Below are positions 3,760-53,958 of a stretch of DNA of 64,000 bases, piece by piece (within the stretch, counting starts at the first letter, position 1; each line of letters begins with the position of its first letter). The stretch comes from Deltaproteobacteria bacterium. Lineage in GTDB: Bacteria > Desulfobacterota > Dissulfuribacteria > Dissulfuribacterales > UBA3076. The notes beneath the pieces are model-generated. The model was not told the DNA's origin and ran no database searches. It worked only from the letters and a program-made list of their open reading frames with translations. The stretch spans positions 41,008 to 105,007 of the forward strand of contig PQXD01000009.1 of assembly GCA_003194485.1 (NCBI GenBank). Direction: 5' to 3'. The translations under genes were made by a program, and so were the position numbers.

Positions 3760-4719
3760 TCACAGAATAAATTCCAAAATATACTTAATAGCTGGGAATA
3801 GGATACAAAATACCAGTATCGATTTGATCAGCCTGGCCGGGACAAATTTCTGTAACCTTGCTCCGCAATACATGCCGGCAAATCCTCCCATCCCGAACAG
3901 GAGGCCCAGTGCCCAATCCGGTGCAACGGCCATGTGAGGATAAAAGGGAGCTATTGCCTGATAAAACAGCACGCCCACAACTGAGGTTACAAAGGTCCCC
4001 ATCAATGCCGCACCAGCTATAGTATAAACCGGGAGGCAGAAGAAGCTTACAAAGAACGGAGCAATAATGGCCCCTCCTCCTATCCCGTAAATACCGCCGA
4101 TGATACCAACCGAAAAGCTTAACAGCATTATTCCCATGGCGTTTATATCAAACGTTTGGCCATAGAATTCATAGATAATGCGGGAGATATTGAACTTCTT
4201 TACGATAATTCGTGGTAATTGCTTTTGACCTGAAGCGGTTCCGGATTGATTTGATTCATAGTATTCTTTAACTACCTTCTGGAATTGCTCCTCTGCTGAC
4301 ATTCGATGGCCATCGGCCTGCTTTTTCTTAAGCACATCTTTTATCAATCTACCACCAATATATAAGAGGACCAGACCGGCAAACATCTTGAAGTTCTTTG
4401 GATCCGGAAGGTACTGTATTCGCAGAATGGCACCGATTAAGACCCCGGGCAGGGTTCCTATTATGACCGCCCATGTGAGCGGCCATACCATTCGGCCTTC
4501 CCTGATATATCGATAAACGCCGCTGGGAATGGCAACAATATTGAAAAGATGGTTAGTGGCACTGACTGCCGGGCTGCTGAAACCAAGGAAACTGACCTGG
4601 AAGGGCAAGATCAGAAAGGCGCCTGACACACCCCCCATTGAGGTAAAGAAAGAAATAACAAAAGCTACAAGAGGCGGGATCCAGGGACTAACTTGGATAT
4701 CGGCAATCGGGAAATACAT
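3760..4719 (-). CDS. Sulfite exporter TauE/SafE family membrane protein
   Basis: Duplicated Gly-rich TM motifs (GGVSGAFLILPF; GGIYGIGGGAIIAPF) and multiple hydrophobic helices. Confidence 0.85.
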   Translation of the reverse strand: MYFPIADIQVSPWIPPLVAFVISFFTSMGGVSGAFLILPFQVSFLGFSSPAVSATNHLFNIVAIPSGVYRYIREGRMVWPLTWAVIIGTLPGVLIGAILRIQYLPDPKNFKMFAGLVLLYIGGRLIKDVLKKKQADGHRMSAEEQFQKVVKEYYESNQSGTASGQKQLPRIIVKKFNISRIIYEFYGQTFDINAMGIMLLSFSVGIIGGIYGIGGGAIIAPFFVSFFCLPVYTIAGAALMGTFVTSVVGVLFYQAIAPFYPHMAVAPDWALGLLFGMGGFAGMYCGARLQKFVPARLIKSILVFCILFPAIKYILEFIL

Positions 4720-4792
4720 TCAGAAATCCTCAGATAGCCGCCTGCAAAATTCAGGATTCATTATGATTGGCGTTCATAGGTTCAGTTGTTTT

Positions 4793-4987
4793 GTAAATAT
4801 TCGGTGAACCCTTTATATCCTGCCTTGAAGCGGTTACCTTTTTCCGGGTTTCAAAGCTCACTCATTGCAGACCGGAGAGGCAGTGCAATCCGGCCCGCGA
4901 TCGAAACCCTGCAAAAGGTAAACCGCTCCTGCGGCAGGGCACGGATGGCAACTTCCACAGCGGACCGCGGGTTCACCGAATATTTAC
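4793..4987. mobile_element. MITE family A, full-length 195 bp
   Basis: Perfect 19-bp TIR gtaaatattcggtgaaccc/gggttcaccgaatatttac. Flanks gttgtttt (4785-92) and gttgcttt (4988-95) form a 7/8 TSD. Confidence 0.9.
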
Positions 4988-5038
4988 GTTGCTTTGACCT
5001 TACAACTTTGAGGATGTTCCGCCGTAAACAGTTACGAA

Positions 5039-5737
5039 TCAAGCTATTTCTCCCCAAAAAGTGACGCCTTCTAACGTCATTCCTTTTGCATACGCCTTTG
5101 CACTTTGGTCTGCCCTGCGGAGGGGCTCGGATATTCTGTATCTGGATGAAAGATTCAGAATTACTTCTATTGACGTTTTCAGGCTTACTCCATGCCCTGG
5201 ACTGACAAAGACAGGCTTTGTATTGTCCCGTGTTACTAAGACTGCACCGATTACCCCTTTCTCATCCTTGATGAACAGGCAATTCCCTCTCTTCTTATCT
5301 ATTTTTCCATTGTAATGCATCAAAGTCTCTTTAGCACAACCTATTGAGGGGATGTCAGTATTCACACCAATCCAGCAGGCAACTCCAAAACGTCTTGGAT
5401 GTGCTATCCCGTGCCCATCCACAATGATCAATTCGGGCTGCAGAGACAGGCGCTTTTTGGCTGCTTCCAGCATTTCCAGCAACAGAGGCCCTTCCCTGAA
5501 GCAAAAGAATTGCGGTACGTATGGGACTTCTACCTTTGCAGTACCTACATAAGTGCCAACAATTCCACCTTTCCATTTCTGCACATCCAATGCAATACAG
5601 GCCTTATCTTTCACATAGTGGACATCCAGACTAAAAATGATATCATATTCTTGCGGATGGTAACCTGAATCATCGGGCGGAATACACACTTTTTGCGCCA
5701 GCTTTTTCTGCAGTTCGGCCAAGTATGTCCTGTTCAT
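5039..5737 (-). CDS. nfi: Endonuclease V
   Basis: YVPQFFCFREGP, IVDGHGIAHPRRFGVAC, IGCAK, PVFVSPGH and EPLRRAD motifs. Confidence 0.92.
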   Translation of the reverse strand: MNRTYLAELQKKLAQKVCIPPDDSGYHPQEYDIIFSLDVHYVKDKACIALDVQKWKGGIVGTYVGTAKVEVPYVPQFFCFREGPLLLEMLEAAKKRLSLQPELIIVDGHGIAHPRRFGVACWIGVNTDIPSIGCAKETLMHYNGKIDKKRGNCLFIKDEKGVIGAVLVTRDNTKPVFVSPGHGVSLKTSIEVILNLSSRYRISEPLRRADQSAKAYAKGMTLEGVTFWGEIA

Positions 5738-6777: not shown

Positions 6778-7227
6778 TTGAGAAAAAGACTGAATGACCG
6801 TGGTCTTGCAAGGGGCATTGAGAGAGATTCGGGTTTTACCTTGATCGAGCTCCTGGTAGTGGTGATAATCATCGGACTCTTGGCTTCCCTGGTGGCACCC
6901 AAATTTTTCGGAAAGCTGGGAATGAGCAAACAAAAGGCCGCAAAGGCCCAGATCGAGCTCTTTGGCGCCGCCCTTGACGAGTTTCGCCTGGATAACGGTC
7001 GTTATCCTGATACTGAGGAGGGCCTTTCGGCCTTGCGGGAAAAGCCGGATGATCTTGAAAACTGGGCCGGGCCCTATCTGCCCAAGGCCGTTCCAAAGGA
7101 TCCGTGGGGACACGAATACGTCTACAAATCTCCCGGAGAGCACTATGACTATGATCTGATCAGCTACGGCCGTGACGGTGAGCCAGGTGGAGAAGGTGAA
7201 GACTCGGACATAGTAAGTTGGAAGTGA
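6778..7227 (+). CDS. gspG: T2SS major pseudopilin GspG
   Basis: SG|FTLIELLVV prepilin site, YPDTEEGLSAL, W.GPYL...PKDPWG...Y. GGAGG at 6765-69 precedes TTG 6778. Confidence 0.95.
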   Translation: MRKRLNDRGLARGIERDSGFTLIELLVVVIIIGLLASLVAPKFFGKLGMSKQKAAKAQIELFGAALDEFRLDNGRYPDTEEGLSALREKPDDLENWAGPYLPKAVPKDPWGHEYVYKSPGEHYDYDLISYGRDGEPGGEGEDSDIVSWK

Positions 7228-7232
7228 AGTAA

Positions 7233-8885
7233 TTGGGTGATCCTGTGAATATTCAAAACGTAGGATCTCGCCTGGTGTCTTTATTCAAAGGGAAAGGCGG
7301 GAACGGATTCCAAAACGCAGGCGGCGATCAGGTTCCTGGAGCCGAATCAAACTTAGCGGAGATTTCAGGGCCGGGATTTCCTGAAATAAGTGCGGCTGAT
7401 TTCCCAGACAAGCCACCCATGATTAATGGGCTGTCTCCGCAGCTAATGCGGCAGTGGCGGGTCGTCACACTGTCCCTGGACGACTCTGAAGCCAGGGTGG
7501 CCATGGCCACGCCCCAGGATCTGTACATGAGGGAGCTCCTTGAAAGTATTTACCAGAAGCCGGTCAGGCCCTTTCTCGCCAGTGAAGAGGATATCCTGGC
7601 CGCTGTTTACAGGTGGTACGAAGCCGATTCGGACCTGGGAGGAGAGGAGTCAGAGGACGAATCACGCGCTGTTGATGAGCTGTGGGAAGATCCTGAACAG
7701 TTGCGGGACCTTGCCTCCGAGGCCCCTGTGATACGTCTTGTAAACCACGTTATCAGCCAGGCCCTTGAAGTAAAGGCCTCAGATATACATTTTGAGCCGT
7801 TCAGGGATCTCTTGAAGGTAAGGTTCCGTATAGATGGAGTCCTTCACGACATCGAGACGGTCTCAAAAAGGCTACAGCCTGCGATTACCTCACGGCTGAA
7901 GCTTATGGGCAAGATGAATATCGCTGAGATGCGCTTGCCTCAGGACGGGCGCATCAAGGTCCGCGAAGGGCAAAGAGAGATCGACATAAGGGTCTCTTCT
8001 CTGCCCACCCTTTTTGGGGAAAGTGTAGTGCTCAGGCTCCTGAACCGGGAGGAGGTCCGGCTGGAACTTGAAACCCTCGGGATTTCAGCCGATATACTGG
8101 GAGATTTTGAAAAGATAATTTCAAGGCCCTATGGGCTGGTCCTGGTCACCGGTCCGACCGGCAGCGGGAAGACCACTACTCTTTACGGGGTCATGAACCG
8201 CATCAATGCCCCTGACAAGAAGATTGTAACAGTAGAAGACCCGGTTGAGTATCAGCTCGATGGAATAAATCAGATCCAGATCCGTCCTGAGATAGGGTTG
8301 GGCTTTGCCTCCGCCCTCCGCAATATCCTCAGGCAGGACCCGGACGTGATACTTATAGGGGAGATCAGGGACGCTGAGACCGCCGAGATTGCCATACAGT
8401 CCGCCCTTACCGGACATCTTGTATTTTCTACCCTTCACACAAACGATGCTGCAAGTGCAATTACCAGGTTGCAGGAAATGGGCATCGAGTCTTATCTTTT
8501 GTCTTCCTGCCTGCTGGCAGTGATGGCCCAGAGACTGGTGAGGAAGATCTGTCCCCATTGCCGGACTTCCTATGATCTGCCGCCCGGTTTTTTAGATGAG
8601 GTAGTTCAGGCCCTTGGAGCGGACAATATCCAGGCCCCATCCGAGGTCTGGCGGGGTAAGGGTTGCGCTCACTGCGCCAATACGGGGTTTTCAGGTCGTA
8701 CCGGCATATACGAGCTGATCAGGGTGGATGACGAGATAAGAAGAATGATAGTAAAGGGTGCTGACAGCAGCTCAATCCTTTCCAAGGCACAATCCCTGGG
8801 CATGAGGACGCTCCGTCAGGACGGCCTTCTAAAGGTCCTTGCAGCTCAGACAACCTTTGAAGAGGTTATGAGAGTCACTAATTAA
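7233..8885 (+). CDS. gspE: T2SS ATPase GspE
   Basis: ASDIHFEP, GPTGSGKTTTLY Walker [32 protein letters not shown] and Cys-pair Zn motif. Confidence 0.95.
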   Translation: MGDPVNIQNVGSRLVSLFKGKGGNGFQNAGGDQVPGAESNLAEISGPGFPEISAADFPDKPPMINGLSPQLMRQWRVVTLSLDDSEARVAMATPQDLYMRELLESIYQKPVRPFLASEEDILAAVYRWYEADSDLGGEESEDESRAVDELWEDPEQLRDLASEAPVIRLVNHVISQALEVKASDIHFEPFRDLLKVRFRIDGVLHDIETVSKRLQPAITSRLKLMGKMNIAEMRLPQDGRIKVREGQREIDIRVSSLPTLFGESVVLRLLNREEVRLELETLGISADILGDFEKIISRPYGLVLVTGPTGSGKTTTLYGVMNRINAPDKKIVTVEDPVEYQLDGINQIQIRPEIGLGFASALRNILRQDPDVILIGEIRDAETAEIAIQSALTGHLVFSTLHTNDAASAITRLQEMGIESYLLSSCLLAVMAQRLVRKICPHCRTSYDLPPGFLDEVVQALGADNIQAPSEVWRGKGCAHCANTGFSGRTGIYELIRVDDEIRRMIVKGADSSSILSKAQSLGMRTLRQDGLLKVLAAQTTFEEVMRVTN

Positions 8886-8886
8886 A

Positions 8887-10092
8887 ATGCCTACCTTTGC
8901 TTATGAGGCCCTGGATGTTAAAGGGCAAAAAATTCAGGGGACCGGCGAGGCTTCAAGCCAGGATCTCTTAATTTCTATGCTGATCTCTAAGGGCCTTCAG
9001 CCTGTCAGGGTTAAGAGGCTGAAGCGGTTTTATGCTTTGTGGAGCAGGAAAGGGGTCAGGTTCAGACATGATGATCTCCTCTACTTCACCAGGGAATTGG
9101 CTGATCTTCTGGAGGCCGGTGTCCCTCTGGAACGGGCTCTGGCCGTCGTGGAAGATGCTGCTGAGCAAAAGACAATACGTGAGCTGATTAATACCATAAG
9201 ACGGGAGATCCAGGGGGGTAAAAAGCTGTCAGAGGCCTTATCTTCCTATCCGGACATCTTCAACCGCCTCTACATCAATATGATACGGGTTGGGGAGTTG
9301 GGAGGTGTCCTCCCCATGGTTCTTAAAAGGTTGGATGGTTTCATCGAGCGTTCAAGAAATATTCGAAAGTTTATTATTACTTCATCGATCTATCCCGGCA
9401 TCCTGGCCCTTGTGGGCATCCTGTCCGTCTTTATCCTGGTGACCTTTGTAGTGCCAAAGTTTGGCCAGATCTTTGAGGATCTCAATCAGCCTATGCCCCT
9501 GGCCACCAGGTTAATAGTCAGGGCCAGCATGTTTCTTCAGTCATGGTGGTGGCTGTTATGCCTGGTTATTCTTGTACTTGGCACCGGTTTTTACTCCTAT
9601 ATCAAGACACCTGATGGAAGGGCCTGGTGGGACAGGGCAGTGCTTCGCCTGCCCTTGGCCGGCTCCATGTTGCTGAAGATAGAACTCGGTCGTCTGGCCC
9701 GCACCATGGGTACCTTGCTTGAGAGCGGTGTTCCCATACTCAAGGGTATTTCCCTCTCGGGAGAAGTGGTGTCCAACAGCGTCATACGGGGTGCTGTGGA
9801 GGACCTGTATAAGGGGGTCCGCCAGGGAAAGAGTCTCAGTCAGCTTATGAAACAGGCAAAGGTGTTTCCGTCACTCATGGTACATCTGGTGGCTATTGGG
9901 GAGGAAACAGGGGCCATGGGGCCCATGCTTCTGAAGATTGCAGATGATCTCGAAGAAAGGGTCCAGCACGATACCAAGGTCTATCTGTCCTTGGTGGAAC
10001 CTGTAACCATAGTACTGATGGGAATTATTATCGGCGGGATTATCCTGTCCATGCTCCTTGCCATATTCGGTATTAATGATGTGGCCTTATAA
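8887..10092 (+). CDS. gspF: T2SS inner membrane platform protein GspF
   Basis: MPTFAYEALD start, GELGG, IYP, GEETG motifs and three TM segments. Confidence 0.93.
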   Translation: MPTFAYEALDVKGQKIQGTGEASSQDLLISMLISKGLQPVRVKRLKRFYALWSRKGVRFRHDDLLYFTRELADLLEAGVPLERALAVVEDAAEQKTIRELINTIRREIQGGKKLSEALSSYPDIFNRLYINMIRVGELGGVLPMVLKRLDGFIERSRNIRKFIITSSIYPGILALVGILSVFILVTFVVPKFGQIFEDLNQPMPLATRLIVRASMFLQSWWWLLCLVILVLGTGFYSYIKTPDGRAWWDRAVLRLPLAGSMLLKIELGRLARTMGTLLESGVPILKGISLSGEVVSNSVIRGAVEDLYKGVRQGKSLSQLMKQAKVFPSLMVHLVAIGEETGAMGPMLLKIADDLEERVQHDTKVYLSLVEPVTIVLMGIIIGGIILSMLLAIFGINDVAL

Positions 10093-10101
10093 AAGGTCAA
10101 A

Positions 10102-10337
10102 GTAACCGTTCAATGGTTCAAAGGTTTACAGTTCAGAGGTTCAAGGGTTTACCGAAAATTTGAACCGTTGATTCGTGAGTTCTGAATGGAGAAGGCATGA
10201 GAATAGAACAATAGAGCAATGATAAATCAACAATCAACAATCAACAATCCAATGAGGCATGGCACTTGGCCCGAGACCTAACTCGCAAGGTCAAGGGAAG
10301 AAAGGTAACCCTGAACCCTGAACCCTTGAACGGTCAC
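10102..10337. mobile_element. MITE family B (GTAACCGTTCA-type TIR, heptamer-rich), 236 bp, inserted in the gspH leader
   Basis: TIR gtaaccgttcaa / ttgaacggtcac (11/12). Flanks aggtcaaa (10094-101) and aggtcaag (10338-45) form a 7/8 TSD. Internal GGTTCAA-, AATCAAC- and CCCTGAA-type repeats. Confidence 0.8.
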
Positions 10338-10775
10338 AGGTCAAGGGGTTTTACGCTAATTGAGCTCCTCGTGGTACTGGTACTTATAGGCATTTTCAGT
10401 TCCCTGGTCTTTGTGGCAGTTGCCGGCGGGATACTTCGGTCTGAAGAGAGGCGTTTTGTGCAGTCCTTTACACAGACCCTGGTCCGCGCCAGGTCCGCAG
10501 GTCTGGGTAGAGGCGAGGCAGTCAGGTTTTTGATTGATGGTGAGAGCAGGACCTTTTGTGTTGAAGGTCTCAAATGGCAGGATATACCCGAGTCCATAAA
10601 GGTAGAAGGCAAGGGAGTGGGCGCAGTGGAACCAGGTATCCATGCCGTGACCTTTTATCCTGACGGAAGCTCAAGCGGCGGTGAGATTGACCTCAAGTGG
10701 GAAGGAGGTCGCATGGACCGGATAGTGATAGACAGGTTCCTGGGGCTGGTAGGCATGGAGCGCATTTCATCGTGA
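10266..10775 (+). CDS. gspH: T2SS minor pseudopilin GspH with MITE-derived leader
   Basis: RSRG|FTLIELL site and VTFYPDGSSSGG GspH/FimT motif. The only in-frame start is TTG 10266 (GAGG 8 nt upstream), which lies inside the MITE. Confidence 0.85.
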   Translation: MARDLTRKVKGRKVTLNPEPLNGHRSRGFTLIELLVVLVLIGIFSSLVFVAVAGGILRSEERRFVQSFTQTLVRARSAGLGRGEAVRFLIDGESRTFCVEGLKWQDIPESIKVEGKGVGAVEPGIHAVTFYPDGSSSGGEIDLKWEGGRMDRIVIDRFLGLVGMERISS

Positions 10776-11200
10776 CAATCACTAAATCGTCAAATCGTCA
10801 AATCGTCAAATCGTCAGGTTTTACCCTCATAGAGGTCCTGGTTGCCACGGCAATAATGGGTATCGCGCTTGGAGTGCTGCTTTCCGGCTTTGCGCAGGGC
10901 CACAGGCAGGCCTTCAGGGGCGACATGGCCAGAGAGGCAGCGTATATAGCAGAGTCCGTGCTTTATGGATTGCTCCATGAGCCTGAATCCCTGTCTCCGG
11001 GTGAGGAGGACGTAAAAGATCATCCCGGATGGAGCTATAAGGTGGAAGTTCGGGACCTGGTCTTGAAGATAACGGTCCAGGACCAGGAAGAGAAAGAGAT
11101 CGAGATCCCCGAACTGAAGGAGCTTATTCTTACCGTACAACCTCCGTATAATGCACATCCTTTTGTATTGACCAGCTGGATACCGGCAGAGCAGATATGA
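10772..11200 (+). CDS. gspI: T2SS minor pseudopilin GspI
   Basis: SSG|FTLIEVLVA. GTG start overlaps the gspH stop (GTGA 10772-75). Confidence 0.85.
   Translation: MTITKSSNRQIVKSSGFTLIEVLVATAIMGIALGVLLSGFAQGHRQAFRGDMAREAAYIAESVLYGLLHEPESLSPGEEDVKDHPGWSYKVEVRDLVLKITVQDQEEKEIEIPELKELILTVQPPYNAHPFVLTSWIPAEQI
10784..10816 (+). repeat. Tandem repeat (AAATCGTC)x4 within the gspI leader
   Basis: Four perfect 8-bp units at 10784, 10792, 10800 and 10808. Confidence 0.95.
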
Positions 11201-11877
11201 GGAAAAAATCAATCACCAGATCCTCAGGCTTTACCCTGCTTGAACTCCTGATCTCAGTCACCCTCATTGCCGTGCTGGTCCTCATACTTTCCATGGCTGT
11301 CCGTACAGGACTGAGGGCCTACAGCAGGGGTAAAAAGATCAACAAACGTCTGATAGTTGTATCCTCCATTGAAGGACTTTTGGGAAGACAGCTCAGGGCC
11401 GTGGTGGCGGACGGATCTGATCTCAAGGATTTTTCCGAGTTTAATGGGAAAGAGAACGAGATATCCTTTGTGACTACCCACGTACCGCTTGGTTCCCAGG
11501 CAGGTGGCCTTTTCAGGGTAGTTTATCGTTTTGATGAAAAAAGAAAAAAGCTCATCTATGCCCAGAAGGTCATCACCAGGCCCGAAGACCTGAAAGAACC
11601 CCTTCCTGACAACATAGATCAGGAAGATAAAGAGGACCTGACGGAACAGGGCTGGGGCGTTTCGATCATAAACGGGATAGATTCGCTGGCCTTTACATAT
11701 CAAAGTCAATTGCCGGATGAATCCGACCCTGAGGATTGGCAGGATAACTGGAGTCAAAAGGGTAATGTGCCCGAGGCTGTAGCCATGGGCCTGGCCTTTT
11801 CCGATAATGGTAAGGAGCCTGTAACCACTTGGCGAGTTTTTTATACAAGTCCTTTTATTCTGGTAAGTGCAAAGTGA
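11197..11877 (+). CDS. gspJ: T2SS minor pseudopilin GspJ
   Basis: SSG|FTLLELLIS, C-terminal W...W....PEAV motif, ATGA overlap with gspI. Confidence 0.88.
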   Translation: MRKKSITRSSGFTLLELLISVTLIAVLVLILSMAVRTGLRAYSRGKKINKRLIVVSSIEGLLGRQLRAVVADGSDLKDFSEFNGKENEISFVTTHVPLGSQAGGLFRVVYRFDEKRKKLIYAQKVITRPEDLKEPLPDNIDQEDKEDLTEQGWGVSIINGIDSLAFTYQSQLPDESDPEDWQDNWSQKGNVPEAVAMGLAFSDNGKEPVTTWRVFYTSPFILVSAK

Positions 11878-14682: not shown

Positions 14683-16746
14683 ATGAGAATACAAGATCGG
14701 AGATGGATGGTCTGGAGTCTGGCTGTCATATGTTTTTTGGGATCCATTCAAGGCTTGGCTCTTGCTCAGAATCAGGCTACACAGGAGATCCCGTCAAAGG
14801 AAATTGAAAATGCCGCGCCTGATTCTAATGCAACTGTAATAAAGTCTCCATTTTCCGGAGCCGGGGTTGGTGAACGCCGTCAGATAGACATTACTCTGGA
14901 CAGTATGGATATATATCCTGTCCTGGATCAGGTCCTGGGGCGTATTCTGGAGCTCAACTATGTGGTAGATCCAGCCATTAAGGGGACCATTTCACTCAAT
15001 ATCAGGGGCAGATATACCAAGAATGAATTCCTTGATCTCTTCAATTCCATATTGCAGATACACGGCTTGGCCATAACCCGCGGCGCTCAGGATCTTTATA
15101 AGGTGGTACGGAAGGCCGGCAGCGCCAGAGCCGGATCAGAAGTGATAAATATCGGTGAACGGGTCCCCCATGCAGGAGACGTAATCAGTGTCTTTCAGCT
15201 CCAGTACCTCTCTGCGGCCCATGTAATCGCAAATCTCAGGAACTTTATCTCTCCCGGGGCGGTCATGGTGGCCGAGCCAAGTATAAATGCCGTTATCCTG
15301 GTGGACACTGCAGAAAATGTGGGCAAGTTGTCCAAAATATTGGCCTTAATGGACACGGATTTTTTTAAGGATATACATTGGCGTTTCTATACTCTGGAGC
15401 ATACCGATGTGGATGATCTGTCGAAAGACCTTGATAAGATATTCAAGACAAAAGGACTTTATATAAAGCCTGGTATTGATCCGGGCGGCCTGCAGATCAT
15501 GCCCTTAAAGACCATCAACTCCTTGCTTGTAGTGACCAAGTGGGAGGAAGTCCTGGATGTGGTGGGCAACTGGGTGACCCAACTGGATCAGGAGATATCA
15601 CAGAAGGGAACCCAGGTCTATGTATACTTTGTCCAGAACGGCAAGGCTGCAGATATCGCCGATATCCTCCGGCAGCTCTACGGCGGAAAGCCGTCAGATC
15701 GCAAAGGCAGGAAAGAGGTCCTTGTGGAAAGGGAGAAAAAGCCTGCAAAAGAGAAAGCCGTGCAGCATGCCGGGGAATTGGCCGGTGAGGTGGAAATCAT
15801 TGCGGACGAAGTCAACAATGCCATACTCATCAAGGCCACGCAGAGAGATTATGCCATCCTTTCAGAAGTGCTGAAAGAGATCGACATTGTTCCGCGGCAG
15901 GTCCTGATCGACGTGTTGATTGTAGAGGTCTCGCTGGGTAACGATATTGAATACGGGGTCGAGTGGTTTCTCAAGAGCCATATGGGGGGATCATATTCTT
16001 CTAACATTGCACTTACCGATCCTAATCTCGGAAACTTACCCAGGAACACGGCGCTTGGTACGGGCATTTCAGGATTTGCATACAGCCTGTACACAGGTGA
16101 CAGCCTTCGAAACTTAATTAAGTTGTTGGCTACGACGACAGATGTCAATATCCTCTCAGCGCCCAATATCCTGGCTGTGGATAACAAGGAATCCACCATC
16201 GAGGTCGTACAGGACGTGCCTACTTTGACTAGCTCGACTACCAGTACGACCGAGAGCACTCTCACACAATCGATCCAGTATCGAAGTGCCGGCATCCTTC
16301 TGAAGGTAACGCCTTCTATCAATGAGAGCAGACTGGTCAGTATGGAGATAACCCAGGAGGTCAGTTCTCTCCTTGAAAAGGCCAAAGTAGAGGGTATTGA
16401 CTCCCCAATCTTTCAGACCCGTAAGACTACAACCAATCTGGTGGTGCAGGACGGCCATACCATCATAATCGGCGGCTTGATGAAGACAAAAAAAGAAAAG
16501 AGCCGCAGTGGTATCCCTTTTCTCAAGGACTTGCCGGTCCTAGGCTATCTGTTCGGCTGGCGAAGTTACACAAACGAGAAGACGGAACTATTGATGACTA
16601 TTACTCCCTATGTCATACAATCCAAGGAGCAGGCCGACGCACTGACCAGGGAATTTAAAGGGCGAGTCAAGTCCTTGAAGCAGATGCTGGGGGAACATAA
16701 GGGCCTGGCCGGCGAGAAGGGTCTGGAGCAGGAAGATGATAACTAG
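14683..16746 (+). CDS. gspD: T2SS secretin GspD
   Basis: Signal peptide, N-domains, DIVPRQVLIDVLIVEV, ILSAPNILAVDNKES, GILLKVTPSIN, PFLKDLPVLGYLFG and ELLMTITPYV. Confidence 0.95.
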   Translation: MRIQDRRWMVWSLAVICFLGSIQGLALAQNQATQEIPSKEIENAAPDSNATVIKSPFSGAGVGERRQIDITLDSMDIYPVLDQVLGRILELNYVVDPAIKGTISLNIRGRYTKNEFLDLFNSILQIHGLAITRGAQDLYKVVRKAGSARAGSEVINIGERVPHAGDVISVFQLQYLSAAHVIANLRNFISPGAVMVAEPSINAVILVDTAENVGKLSKILALMDTDFFKDIHWRFYTLEHTDVDDLSKDLDKIFKTKGLYIKPGIDPGGLQIMPLKTINSLLVVTKWEEVLDVVGNWVTQLDQEISQKGTQVYVYFVQNGKAADIADILRQLYGGKPSDRKGRKEVLVEREKKPAKEKAVQHAGELAGEVEIIADEVNNAILIKATQRDYAILSEVLKEIDIVPRQVLIDVLIVEVSLGNDIEYGVEWFLKSHMGGSYSSNIALTDPNLGNLPRNTALGTGISGFAYSLYTGDSLRNLIKLLATTTDVNILSAPNILAVDNKESTIEVVQDVPTLTSSTTSTTESTLTQSIQYRSAGILLKVTPSINESRLVSMEITQEVSSLLEKAKVEGIDSPIFQTRKTTTNLVVQDGHTIIIGGLMKTKKEKSRSGIPFLKDLPVLGYLFGWRSYTNEKTELLMTITPYVIQSKEQADALTREFKGRVKSLKQMLGEHKGLAGEKGLEQEDDN

Positions 16747-48175: not shown

Positions 48176-48574
48176 GTAAATATTCTTATGAACCCGTGGT
48201 CTCAAGTAACCGTTCACAGGAAGGGGATATTTCTTTTCACTTAACACTTCAGCCCCTTGTTTTCTTAAGGCTTTTGACATGGGGGATGTCCTGCCCCCTC
48301 TGCATTCGCCTTACGCTGCGCTCAGGCGATGCAGTTTCCCCCACAGCAAAAGCCGAGAAAACTACGGGGGCTTCCGTTAAACTGTTCAAAGAAATATCCC
48401 CTGCCAGTGAACGGTTGCCATCCGTGCCCTGCCGCAGGAGCGGTTTGCCTTTTGCGGGGTTTTGGGTAGCGGGCCGGATTGCACTGCCTCTCCGGTCTGC
48501 GATGAGTGAGCTTTGAAACCCGGAAAAAGGTAACCGCTTCAGGGCAGGATATAACGGGTTCACCGAATATTTAC
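48176..48574. mobile_element. Composite MITE (family A, 399 bp) carrying a nested family-B-type element at 48206..48418
   Basis: Outer A TIRs with flanks aagggaca/aagggacc. Inner TIRs gtaaccgttcacaggaaggggatatttctt / aagaaatatcccctgccagtgaacggttgc. Confidence 0.9.
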
Positions 48575-53559: not shown

Positions 53560-53958
53560 GTAAATATCCGGTGAACCCGTTATATCCTGCCTTGAAGCGG
53601 TTGCCTTTTTCCGGGTTTCAAAGCTCACTCATCGCGGACCGGAGAGGCAGTGCAATCCGGCCCGCGATCGAAACCCTGCAAAAGGCAAACCGCTCCTGCG
53701 GCAGGGCGCGGATGGCAACCGTTCACAGGAAGGGGATATTTCTTTGAACAGTTTATAACGGAAGCCCCCGTAGTTTTCTCGGCTTTTGCTGTGGGGGAAA
53801 CTGCATCGCCTTAAGCGCAGCGTAGGGCGAATGCAGAGGGGGCAGGACATCCCCCATGTCAAAAGCCTTAAGAAAACAAGGGGCTGAAGTGTGAAGTGAA
53901 AAGAAATATCCCCTTCCGTGAACGGTTATGTAGGGTCACGGGTTCACCGGATATTTAC
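53560..53958. mobile_element. Composite MITE (family A, 399 bp) with nested element at 53715..53929
   Basis: Near reverse complement of 48176..48574. Flanks gaggagat/aaggagat. Confidence 0.9.

Follow-up and report, generated by a model that had tools for sequence, protein, structure and literature searches.

The window analysed here, a stretch of 64,000 nucleotides from an uncultured bacterium of hydrothermal and marine sediments, carries a type II secretion system (T2SS) operon of tightly overlapped genes in the order gspG-E-F-H-I-J-K-L-M-D, with a MITE, a miniature inverted-repeat transposable element, at the junction of gspF and gspH. The T2SS platform protein gene gspF occupies 8887..10092 on the + strand (PF00482 T2SSF, E 4.9e-58; stop TAA 10090-10092). 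The next gene encodes a GspH-like minor pseudopilin, whose Gly-1 codon lies at 10347 and whose mature part of 141 aa begins FTLIELL (10347..10775, + strand; stop TGA 10773). The MITE, 236 bp long (10102..10337, + strand), separates the gspF stop from this glycine codon. We refer to the genome carrying the window as G000 and to its contigs by C-numbers (C44, C55 and so on) unless another genome is named. The junction was compared with that of 17 congeners and of the outgroup genus G020, and with additional metagenome contigs such as L179.

The insertion itself is certain. The element ends in 19-nt terminal inverted repeats, GTAACCGTTCAATGGTTCA / TGAACCCTTGAACGGTCAC, which are 89% complementary, and it is bracketed by an 8-bp target-site duplication, of which the left copy AGGTCAAA lies at 10094..10101 and the right copy AGGTCAAG at 10338..10345 (7/8 positions identical). 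When the MITE and one duplicate are removed, the window reads ...AAAAGGTCAA(A/G)GGGTTTTACG. This empty site is found exactly in the congeners G004 and G011 and in contig L179; in the two congeners it has the form ...TATAA(A/G)AGGTCAAAGGGTTTTACG, which encodes MWLYKRSKG|FTLIEL, the bar marking the cleavage site. The outgroup genus has a clean single-copy target encoding MMWPCKSRG|F. The first-pass annotation had placed a MITE in the prepilin leader codons of gspH and had predicted an empty short-leader allele in relatives; both statements are borne out, the first also by the family copies described below. That the 236 bp might instead be an ancestral intergenic spacer lost by the relatives has a practically negligible probability: only the variability of the junction speaks for it, and it is ruled out by the inverted repeats and target duplication, by dispersed full-length copies with duplications of their own, and by the empty sites in the outgroup genus and several congeners.

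The ancestral start codon, ATG10076, overlaps the last 17 nt of gspF. What remains of its frame is a truncated reading frame at 10076..10105 on the + strand (ATG ATG TGG CCT TAT AAA AGG TCA AAG TAA, MMWPYKRSK*), which now ends at TAA10103, as had been noted before. Because the insertion adds 244 nt including this in-frame TAA, the ancestral start overlapping gspF is dead. The MITE landed on unconstrained nucleotides: the three codons for R-S-K in the leader, which separate the gspF stop from the Gly-1 codon. A search of the whole window against Rfam (and of 4300-5300 at E<=1) placed an RNA family neither within nor near the element. A promoter and terminator scan of 9900-10500 found no motif within the MITE on the + strand, and a MITE-borne promoter or terminator is thus unsupported.

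The G|FTLIELL frame is open back to a TAG at -135 nt relative to the Gly codon and holds two possible start codons, both of which lie within the MITE. TTG10266 (10254..10268 with its upstream motif, + strand) is preceded by GAGG at 10254-10257, 8 nt upstream, and would give a leader of 28 aa, MARDLTRKVKGRKVTLNPEPLNGHRSRG. Its presence had been reported correctly in the first-pass annotation, which overlooked the second in-frame start, TTG10326 (10326..10328, + strand). The latter lies in the right inverted repeat, is shared with the MITE copy of the congener G013, and would yield the 8-aa leader MNGHRSRG. The anti-Shine-Dalgarno duplex calculated for TTG10266 is -5.6 kcal/mol, equal to that of gspI, and the mean unpaired probability at this site in the element interior is 0.45. 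TTG10326 has no Shine-Dalgarno sequence (-2.8 kcal/mol) and a mean unpaired probability of 0.10 within the inverted-repeat stem. On account of the stronger duplex and the higher unpaired probability, TTG10266 is favoured as the predicted start. Its leader would carry a net charge of +6. Other leaders of the operon measure about 11-19 aa (gspG 19, gspI 16, gspJ 11).

A real but clearly lesser chance exists that GspH is made from TTG10326, the MITE terminus and the target duplication having recreated a canonical short basic leader. TTG10326 is the sole candidate start common to G000 and G013, its leader resembles the ancestral MWLYKRSKG in length and charge, and it would explain why the element has the same position and orientation in two lineages, if only those insertions survive that bring a start. 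These points are offset by the missing Shine-Dalgarno sequence, by the location within a long inverted-repeat stem with unpaired probabilities of 0.03-0.10, and by the fact that G013 has a GTG of its own, 36 nt upstream of the Gly codon and preceded by AAGGA.

A start codon that overlaps the upstream gene and lacks its own Shine-Dalgarno sequence is the usual arrangement for translational coupling. The old ATG10076, which has no Shine-Dalgarno sequence (-3.0 kcal/mol) and overlaps gspF, conforms to this arrangement, whereas TTG10266 sits 173 nt past the gspF stop behind a Shine-Dalgarno sequence of its own. The suggestion made earlier that gspH has been uncoupled from gspF agrees with these features, from which we infer the loss of coupling.

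The gspH gene downstream of the element is intact, with no stops or frameshifts. In comparisons of G000 with 15 relatives, its dN/dS (NG86) was 0.10-0.16, and the gspH codons unique to G000 comprise 14 synonymous and 6 non-synonymous changes; gspH is under purifying selection. In a second species, G013, the MITE occurs at the identical right junction, again with an intact gspH; at the left junction of G013 the contig ends within the element and the gspF end is unassembled.

Transcription across the element can be followed in two metatranscriptome runs from hydrothermal vents. Exact-match contigs cover 9581-10190 and 10171-11457 and together span both MITE junctions, the whole of gspH and the whole of gspI, which provides the RNA coverage that had been proposed as a check. 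The depth along 4-20 kb varies between 0 and 1341, a spread that points to RNA rather than an even carry-over of DNA. The MITE is co-transcribed with gspF and gspH-gspI, and both runs contain the MITE allele only. Depth on the two sides of the element is similar (13.6/13.1 and 14.3/24.4). This bears on the idea that RNase III cuts the inverted-repeat stem, as it does in Correia elements and 23S rRNA intervening sequences, and splits the operon mRNA into a gspG-F and a gspH-D part with separate stabilities, which we consider quite improbable. In the predicted fold, 10102-10150 is paired with 10300-10337 (-75.8 kcal/mol, z-score -2.3), cleavage at the inverted repeats of MITEs is documented for Correia elements (PMC10969869), and the interior of our element stems from a cassette of an intervening-sequence protein family; however, the similar depth on both sides, as seen in contigs that carry no 5' or 3' ends, speaks against a split message.

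Independent studies supply DNA runs in which two paths share the unitigs on either side of the site (9950-10098, within unitigs of 4.7-5.1 kb, and 10371 onward). The path through the MITE has a depth of about 300 of about 620 in run X12 and of 38-51 of 64-75 in run X8. The second path leads from 10098 into a palindromic element (TGAAAAAATAGAGCCGCTCGC...) with a depth of about 375 in X12 and 28-30 in X8. This alternative allele, with a 153-bp element at 10098/10341 of the window, keeps the frame of the old ATG and was found in runs X5, X6, X7, X8, X12 and X13; two more near-full copies of the palindromic element occur in G000 (C6:35572-35711 and C3:6547-6684). The MITE allele accounts for about 35-75% of the population depending on the sample, and the flanks of the two alleles are identical over at least 4.7 kb. 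A gspH-J tree does not place G000 and G013 as sisters. Of about 83 aligned nt, 3 differ between their MITE copies, as against 12.7% for gspH. Simple shared descent of the two insertions is rejected on the basis of this placement and of the greater closeness of the MITE copies relative to the flanking genes. Probably the MITE allele has moved by recombination, or the element has inserted twice under the same filter.

The coexistence of the two alleles is also an argument for regarding the MITE allele as null, that is, for assuming that the element abolishes GspH translation, that the reading frame looks healthy through its youth or through recombination with functional alleles, and that the cells either lack a working T2SS or do not depend on GspH. 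The ancestral start is closed, both TTG codons are predictions, a functional allele is available in the population in the form of the palindromic-element allele, which retains the ancestral ATG frame on identical flanks, and the similarity of the G000 and G013 copies suggests recent transfer. Nevertheless we regard this explanation as unlikely. The predominance of synonymous over non-synonymous changes on the terminal branch of G000 would not be expected of it, nor would the absence of stops and frameshifts, the high share of the MITE allele in independent studies and its sole presence in two RNA data sets. Furthermore, the protein cluster of the MITE allele has 17 member sequences, G013 and G016 carry the element or a remnant of it beside an intact gspH, and the Shine-Dalgarno sequence of TTG10266 is as good as that of gspI.

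The gspF-gspH junction varies widely among the relatives. Read from the ancestral ATG, the leader comprises 9 aa in G004 and G011, 11 aa in G009, 17 aa in G010, 25 aa in P0010, 33 aa in G002 and 44 aa in G007. Leaders of 16 aa in G001, G006, G008 and G012 result from a 21-nt heptamer array (GGTGGAA GGTTAAA GGTAGAA). In G017 and G015, a 153-bp palindromic element that lacks a stop brings the leader to 60 aa, and in P0012 an AT-rich insert brings it to 64 aa. Contig L180 (JGI Ga0376529_000200, 1501-1700), from a relative with about 71-79% nucleotide identity, likewise has a 165-nt AT-rich insert at the leader position; it is translated through from the ancestral ATG into a leader of 64 aa, and the identical protein occurs on 17 contigs. 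The old frame is lost in G003, G005, G016, G000 and G013, each of which has an alternative in-frame start; in G016, a 23-nt left-end remnant of the MITE family lies in frame before an intact gspH. At least four unrelated inserts begin within about 8 nt of each other (window ~10094-10101). Across about 10 kb of overlapping genes, nothing but these leader codons is free of constraint from both gspF and the cleavage site. The simplest reading of this variation would be a selective filter acting on a site that is permissive rather than adapted: any insert that keeps the cleavage site and an in-frame start would survive, and unrelated inserts would therefore pile up within these few nucleotides. 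Since most length variants stay in the frame of the old ATG, the comparison suggests that coupling to gspF is normally kept and that the MITE allele is an exception.

The MITE belongs to a dispersed family. Its termini, GTAACCGTTCA / TGAACGGTCAC, are of the GTAA type. An 11-nt terminus occurs 6 times in the window, where 0.46 occurrences are expected by chance, and there are about 120 such termini across G000, in which only partial copies of the element itself recur. Parts of the element match 14-65 places per genome in 17 of the 18 genomes of the genus and 4 places in G011. At unrelated loci, G003 (89% identity), G013, G007, G002 and G005 have full-length copies of about 235-250 bp, and several of these have their own 8-bp duplications (AGATCCTC, GTTAAATA, TTTAAATA / AGTCCTG). 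A target duplication of 8 bp is a trait of IS66 elements (ISfinder). The element has no transposase gene; in the congener G010, however, the terminus GTAACCGTTCAC is found on contigs C95 and C60 at 40-110 nt past the 3' ends of two PF03050 (IS66 DDE) transposase genes. G000 contains fragments of IS66 transposases only. Ends of the GTAA type are known from the IS66 family, where they read GTAAGCG.., and GTAACCGTCCGG in ISPa75 (PMC12888890). Based on its GTAA-type ends, the 8-bp duplication and the occurrence of the same terminus beside the transposase genes of G010, we class the element as an IS66-type MITE.

Further MITEs lie elsewhere in the window. Two of about 213 bp, at 48206-48418 and 53715-53929, share the GTAACCGTTCAC-type termini with the element in gspH and have an unrelated interior; one transposase has probably mobilised several types of cargo. 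A separate MITE at 4788-4997 has the inverted repeats TTGTAAATATTCGGTGAACCC...GGGTTCACCGAATATTTACG and no match in Rfam or Pfam. Its RNA word depth is about 1300 in both metatranscriptomes compared to 0-25 in the adjoining genes, a value to which many transcribed copies, or several organisms, may contribute jointly.

From left to right, the gspH element consists of the left inverted repeat with RGGTTCA heptamers (10102-10151), a 5' module (10150-10196) and truncated codons of a gene cassette, and right TGAACC heptamers with the inverted repeat (10305-10337). The cassette encodes a four-helix-bundle protein of PF05635, a family that comprises the 23S intervening-sequence and Avd-like proteins. 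The start of the remnant gene survives at 10197..10214 on the + strand as a 5-codon mini open reading frame (ORF; ATG AGA ATA GAA CAA TAG) behind GGAGAAGG. It is followed at 10225..10245 (+ strand) by three copies of AATCAAC, a marker of this MITE subfamily that is also present in G003 C71, G005 C109 and the gspH copy of G013, and at 10257..10292 (+ strand) by the remnant codons AWHLARDLTRKV, comparable to EDIEAWQLARELTGRV of the gene on C44. That gene belongs to an intact cassette (C44:14452-14763; PF05635, 95 bits), which opens with GTAACCGTTCA and GGTTCA heptamers and whose ORF starts MKIERFEDIEAWQLARELTGRV. MITE copies hold the first 20 or so codons of the cassette ORF and then skip to the right TGAACC array. 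A complete PF05635 domain of about 105 residues is not contained in the MITE, which has about 12 remnant codons and the 5' module only. The interior is collinear with the cassette and is a deletion derivative of it, and a GGTTCA-type cassette has been captured between IS66-type ends. The remnant codons sit in their own frame, which is also that of gspH, and for this reason the MARDLTRKV of the predicted leader is the fossil N-terminus of another protein.

The eight best PF05635 genes of G000 (C55:5250-5567, C7:4473-4790, C5:42445-42765, C44:14452-14763, C62:319-630, C22:50038-50289, C44:18263-18550 and C5:50395-50682) each lie between two inverted arrays of tandem repeats of 7-8 nt, a separate pair for every gene. 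The array unit varies from gene to gene, examples being GTTAGCT/AGCTAAC, CTCGATT/AATCGAG and GAACATC/GATGTTC. These genes with their arrays look like intervening-sequence cassettes outside rRNA.

As to the remainder of the operon, gspG, encoding the major pseudopilin, lies at ~6778-7227 and gspE at 7233-8885. The gspI gene (10772..11200, + strand) begins with a GTG overlapping the gspH stop, the secretin gene gspD occupies 14683-16746, and gspJ, gspK and L- and M-like genes lie between gspI and gspD. None of the other T2SS genes is disrupted, and G000 also encodes a prepilin peptidase (PF01478, 81.6 bits, C44:132429-132752). The GspH-like protein has a class III signal with G-1, F+1, E+5 and a hydrophobic helix (PF07963, 35.3 bits; TIGR02532, 32 bits). 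It scores below the cut-offs of the curated GspH models (XpsH, 60.3 bits against 160; TIGR01708, 42.1 bits against 80), and its operon position, as the first minor pseudopilin ahead of gspI-J-K, is that of GspH. Homologues bear the JGI name GspH, distant ones carry PF12019, and those from metagenome-assembled genomes are labelled Deltaproteobacteria or Thermodesulfobacteriota. Scans of the genome and of metagenome contigs with mature GspH were dominated by the generic GFTLIELL pattern; the relatives retrieved had about 30% identity (best segments up to 68%) and gave no junction data.

The probable start of gspG is TTG6778, with GGAGG 9 nt upstream (-10.8 kcal/mol; window 6778-6834), and the resulting leader of 19 aa, MRKRLNDRGLARGIERDSG|F, is long for a GspG. 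The gspI leader contains (AAATCGTC)x4 at 10784-10815; congeners have the unit AAATCACC once or four times only, which are the in-frame states and give leaders of 9 or 17 aa. An out-of-frame copy number was found in none of 16 species, so that the repeat looks like a tolerated in-frame expansion, not like an on/off switch.

Taken together, we propose that an IS66-type MITE transposed into the three free leader codons of an overlapped T2SS operon, that it travels in the gspF-gspH-gspI transcript, and that GspH starts inside the element. The likeliest start would be TTG10266, with its own GAGG and an accessible interior loop, ahead of TTG10326 as the alternative. The 28-aa leader would combine remnant codons of the four-helix-bundle gene with residues from the right heptamer array and from the target duplication. 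The prepilin peptidase would cut at G|F and the foreign residues would be discarded, leaving the mature pseudopilin unchanged. To this reading, that GspH function continues via a start inside the element and most probably via TTG10266, we assign a probability of roughly 0.6. Several points weigh against it. A leader of 28 aa is long for a T2SS pseudopilin, and it is not unusual for chance to place an in-frame ATG, GTG or TTG in a stretch of 27 codons. The GAGG-TTG pair already exists in other copies of the subfamily (G003 C71) and hence is no adaptation. The G013 copy is without the 48-nt segment that bears this pair, and the only TTG in common is that of the inverted repeat (MNGYRSRG|F). The use of one or the other TTG for translation is itself deduced from sequence features, and the RNA data are assembled contigs without strand or read ends, in which some carry-over of DNA is possible. 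Finally, the argument from the long-term intactness of gspH after the insertion is weakened, though not removed, since the allele may have recombined. The claim of the first-pass annotation that the transposon remnant has been domesticated goes too far: the GAGG-TTG pair pre-exists in the subfamily, at least four other unrelated inserts occupy the site in relatives, and a second allele occurs at similar frequency. Instead of “domestication”, the wording should be “tolerated at a permissive site”.

More speculatively, and with rather low confidence, the free leader codons of GspH (and GspI) could be a recurrent landing site at which alleles with various mobile or repeat elements (the MITE, the palindromic element, heptamer arrays or an AT-rich insert) are exchanged between co-occurring species and kept polymorphic. 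The peptidase would then accept leaders of 8-64 aa, and the alleles would differ in the coupling of gspH-D to gspF and thus in the dose of minor pseudopilins.

The locus would be a natural example of a cleaved targeting peptide that absorbs mobile DNA within a gap-free operon, and of a gene that gives up a coupled start codon and takes one from a transposon while the mature protein stays the same. If this is true, the relatives provide a natural set of leaders (8-64 aa) with which to gauge the tolerance of the prepilin peptidase, and the junction documents how the translational coupling of secretion operons can be rewired by MITEs. It would also link IS66-type MITEs to the poorly understood four-helix-bundle (23S intervening-sequence / Avd-like) cassettes. 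Our searches of the open-access literature turned up no previous account of a prepilin leader that contains a mobile element, or of a secretion gene whose start has been replaced by one.

Among known systems, IS66 insertion sequences and their MITEs share with our element the ends beginning GTAACCGT, the 8-bp duplication, the lack of a transposase, the many dispersed copies and an IS66 partner in a congener; they differ in that our element carries a truncated PF05635 cassette and heptamer arrays as cargo and in that G000 has only transposase fragments. The palindromic elements RPE of Rickettsia and QMITE of Coxiella are small mobile elements that are tolerated inside genes and add residues to the product (PMC10969869, PMC5896051). 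They either form an in-frame part of the mature protein or replace a 3' end, whereas the gspH MITE is located in a cleaved leader, where it interrupts the original frame and must supply a start codon. Read-through of the RPE type into the mature protein does not occur here, as the host frame stops at TAA10103 and the element is upstream of the cleavage site. Like the Correia elements of Neisseria, the gspH MITE lies within an operon transcript and has a long inverted-repeat stem that is a potential RNase III target and may change downstream expression; unlike it, Correia elements are located in untranslated regions, and RNase III cleavage of the gspH MITE is putative. The closest parallel for the product is the class III signal peptide, with which GspH shares G-1, F+1 and E+5 as well as the basic leader; the genome also encodes a prepilin peptidase. 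It departs from that pattern in its predicted transposon-derived leader of 28 (or 8) aa, and the leaders of its congeners, at 9-64 aa, vary far more than the 5-10 aa usual for pseudopilins.

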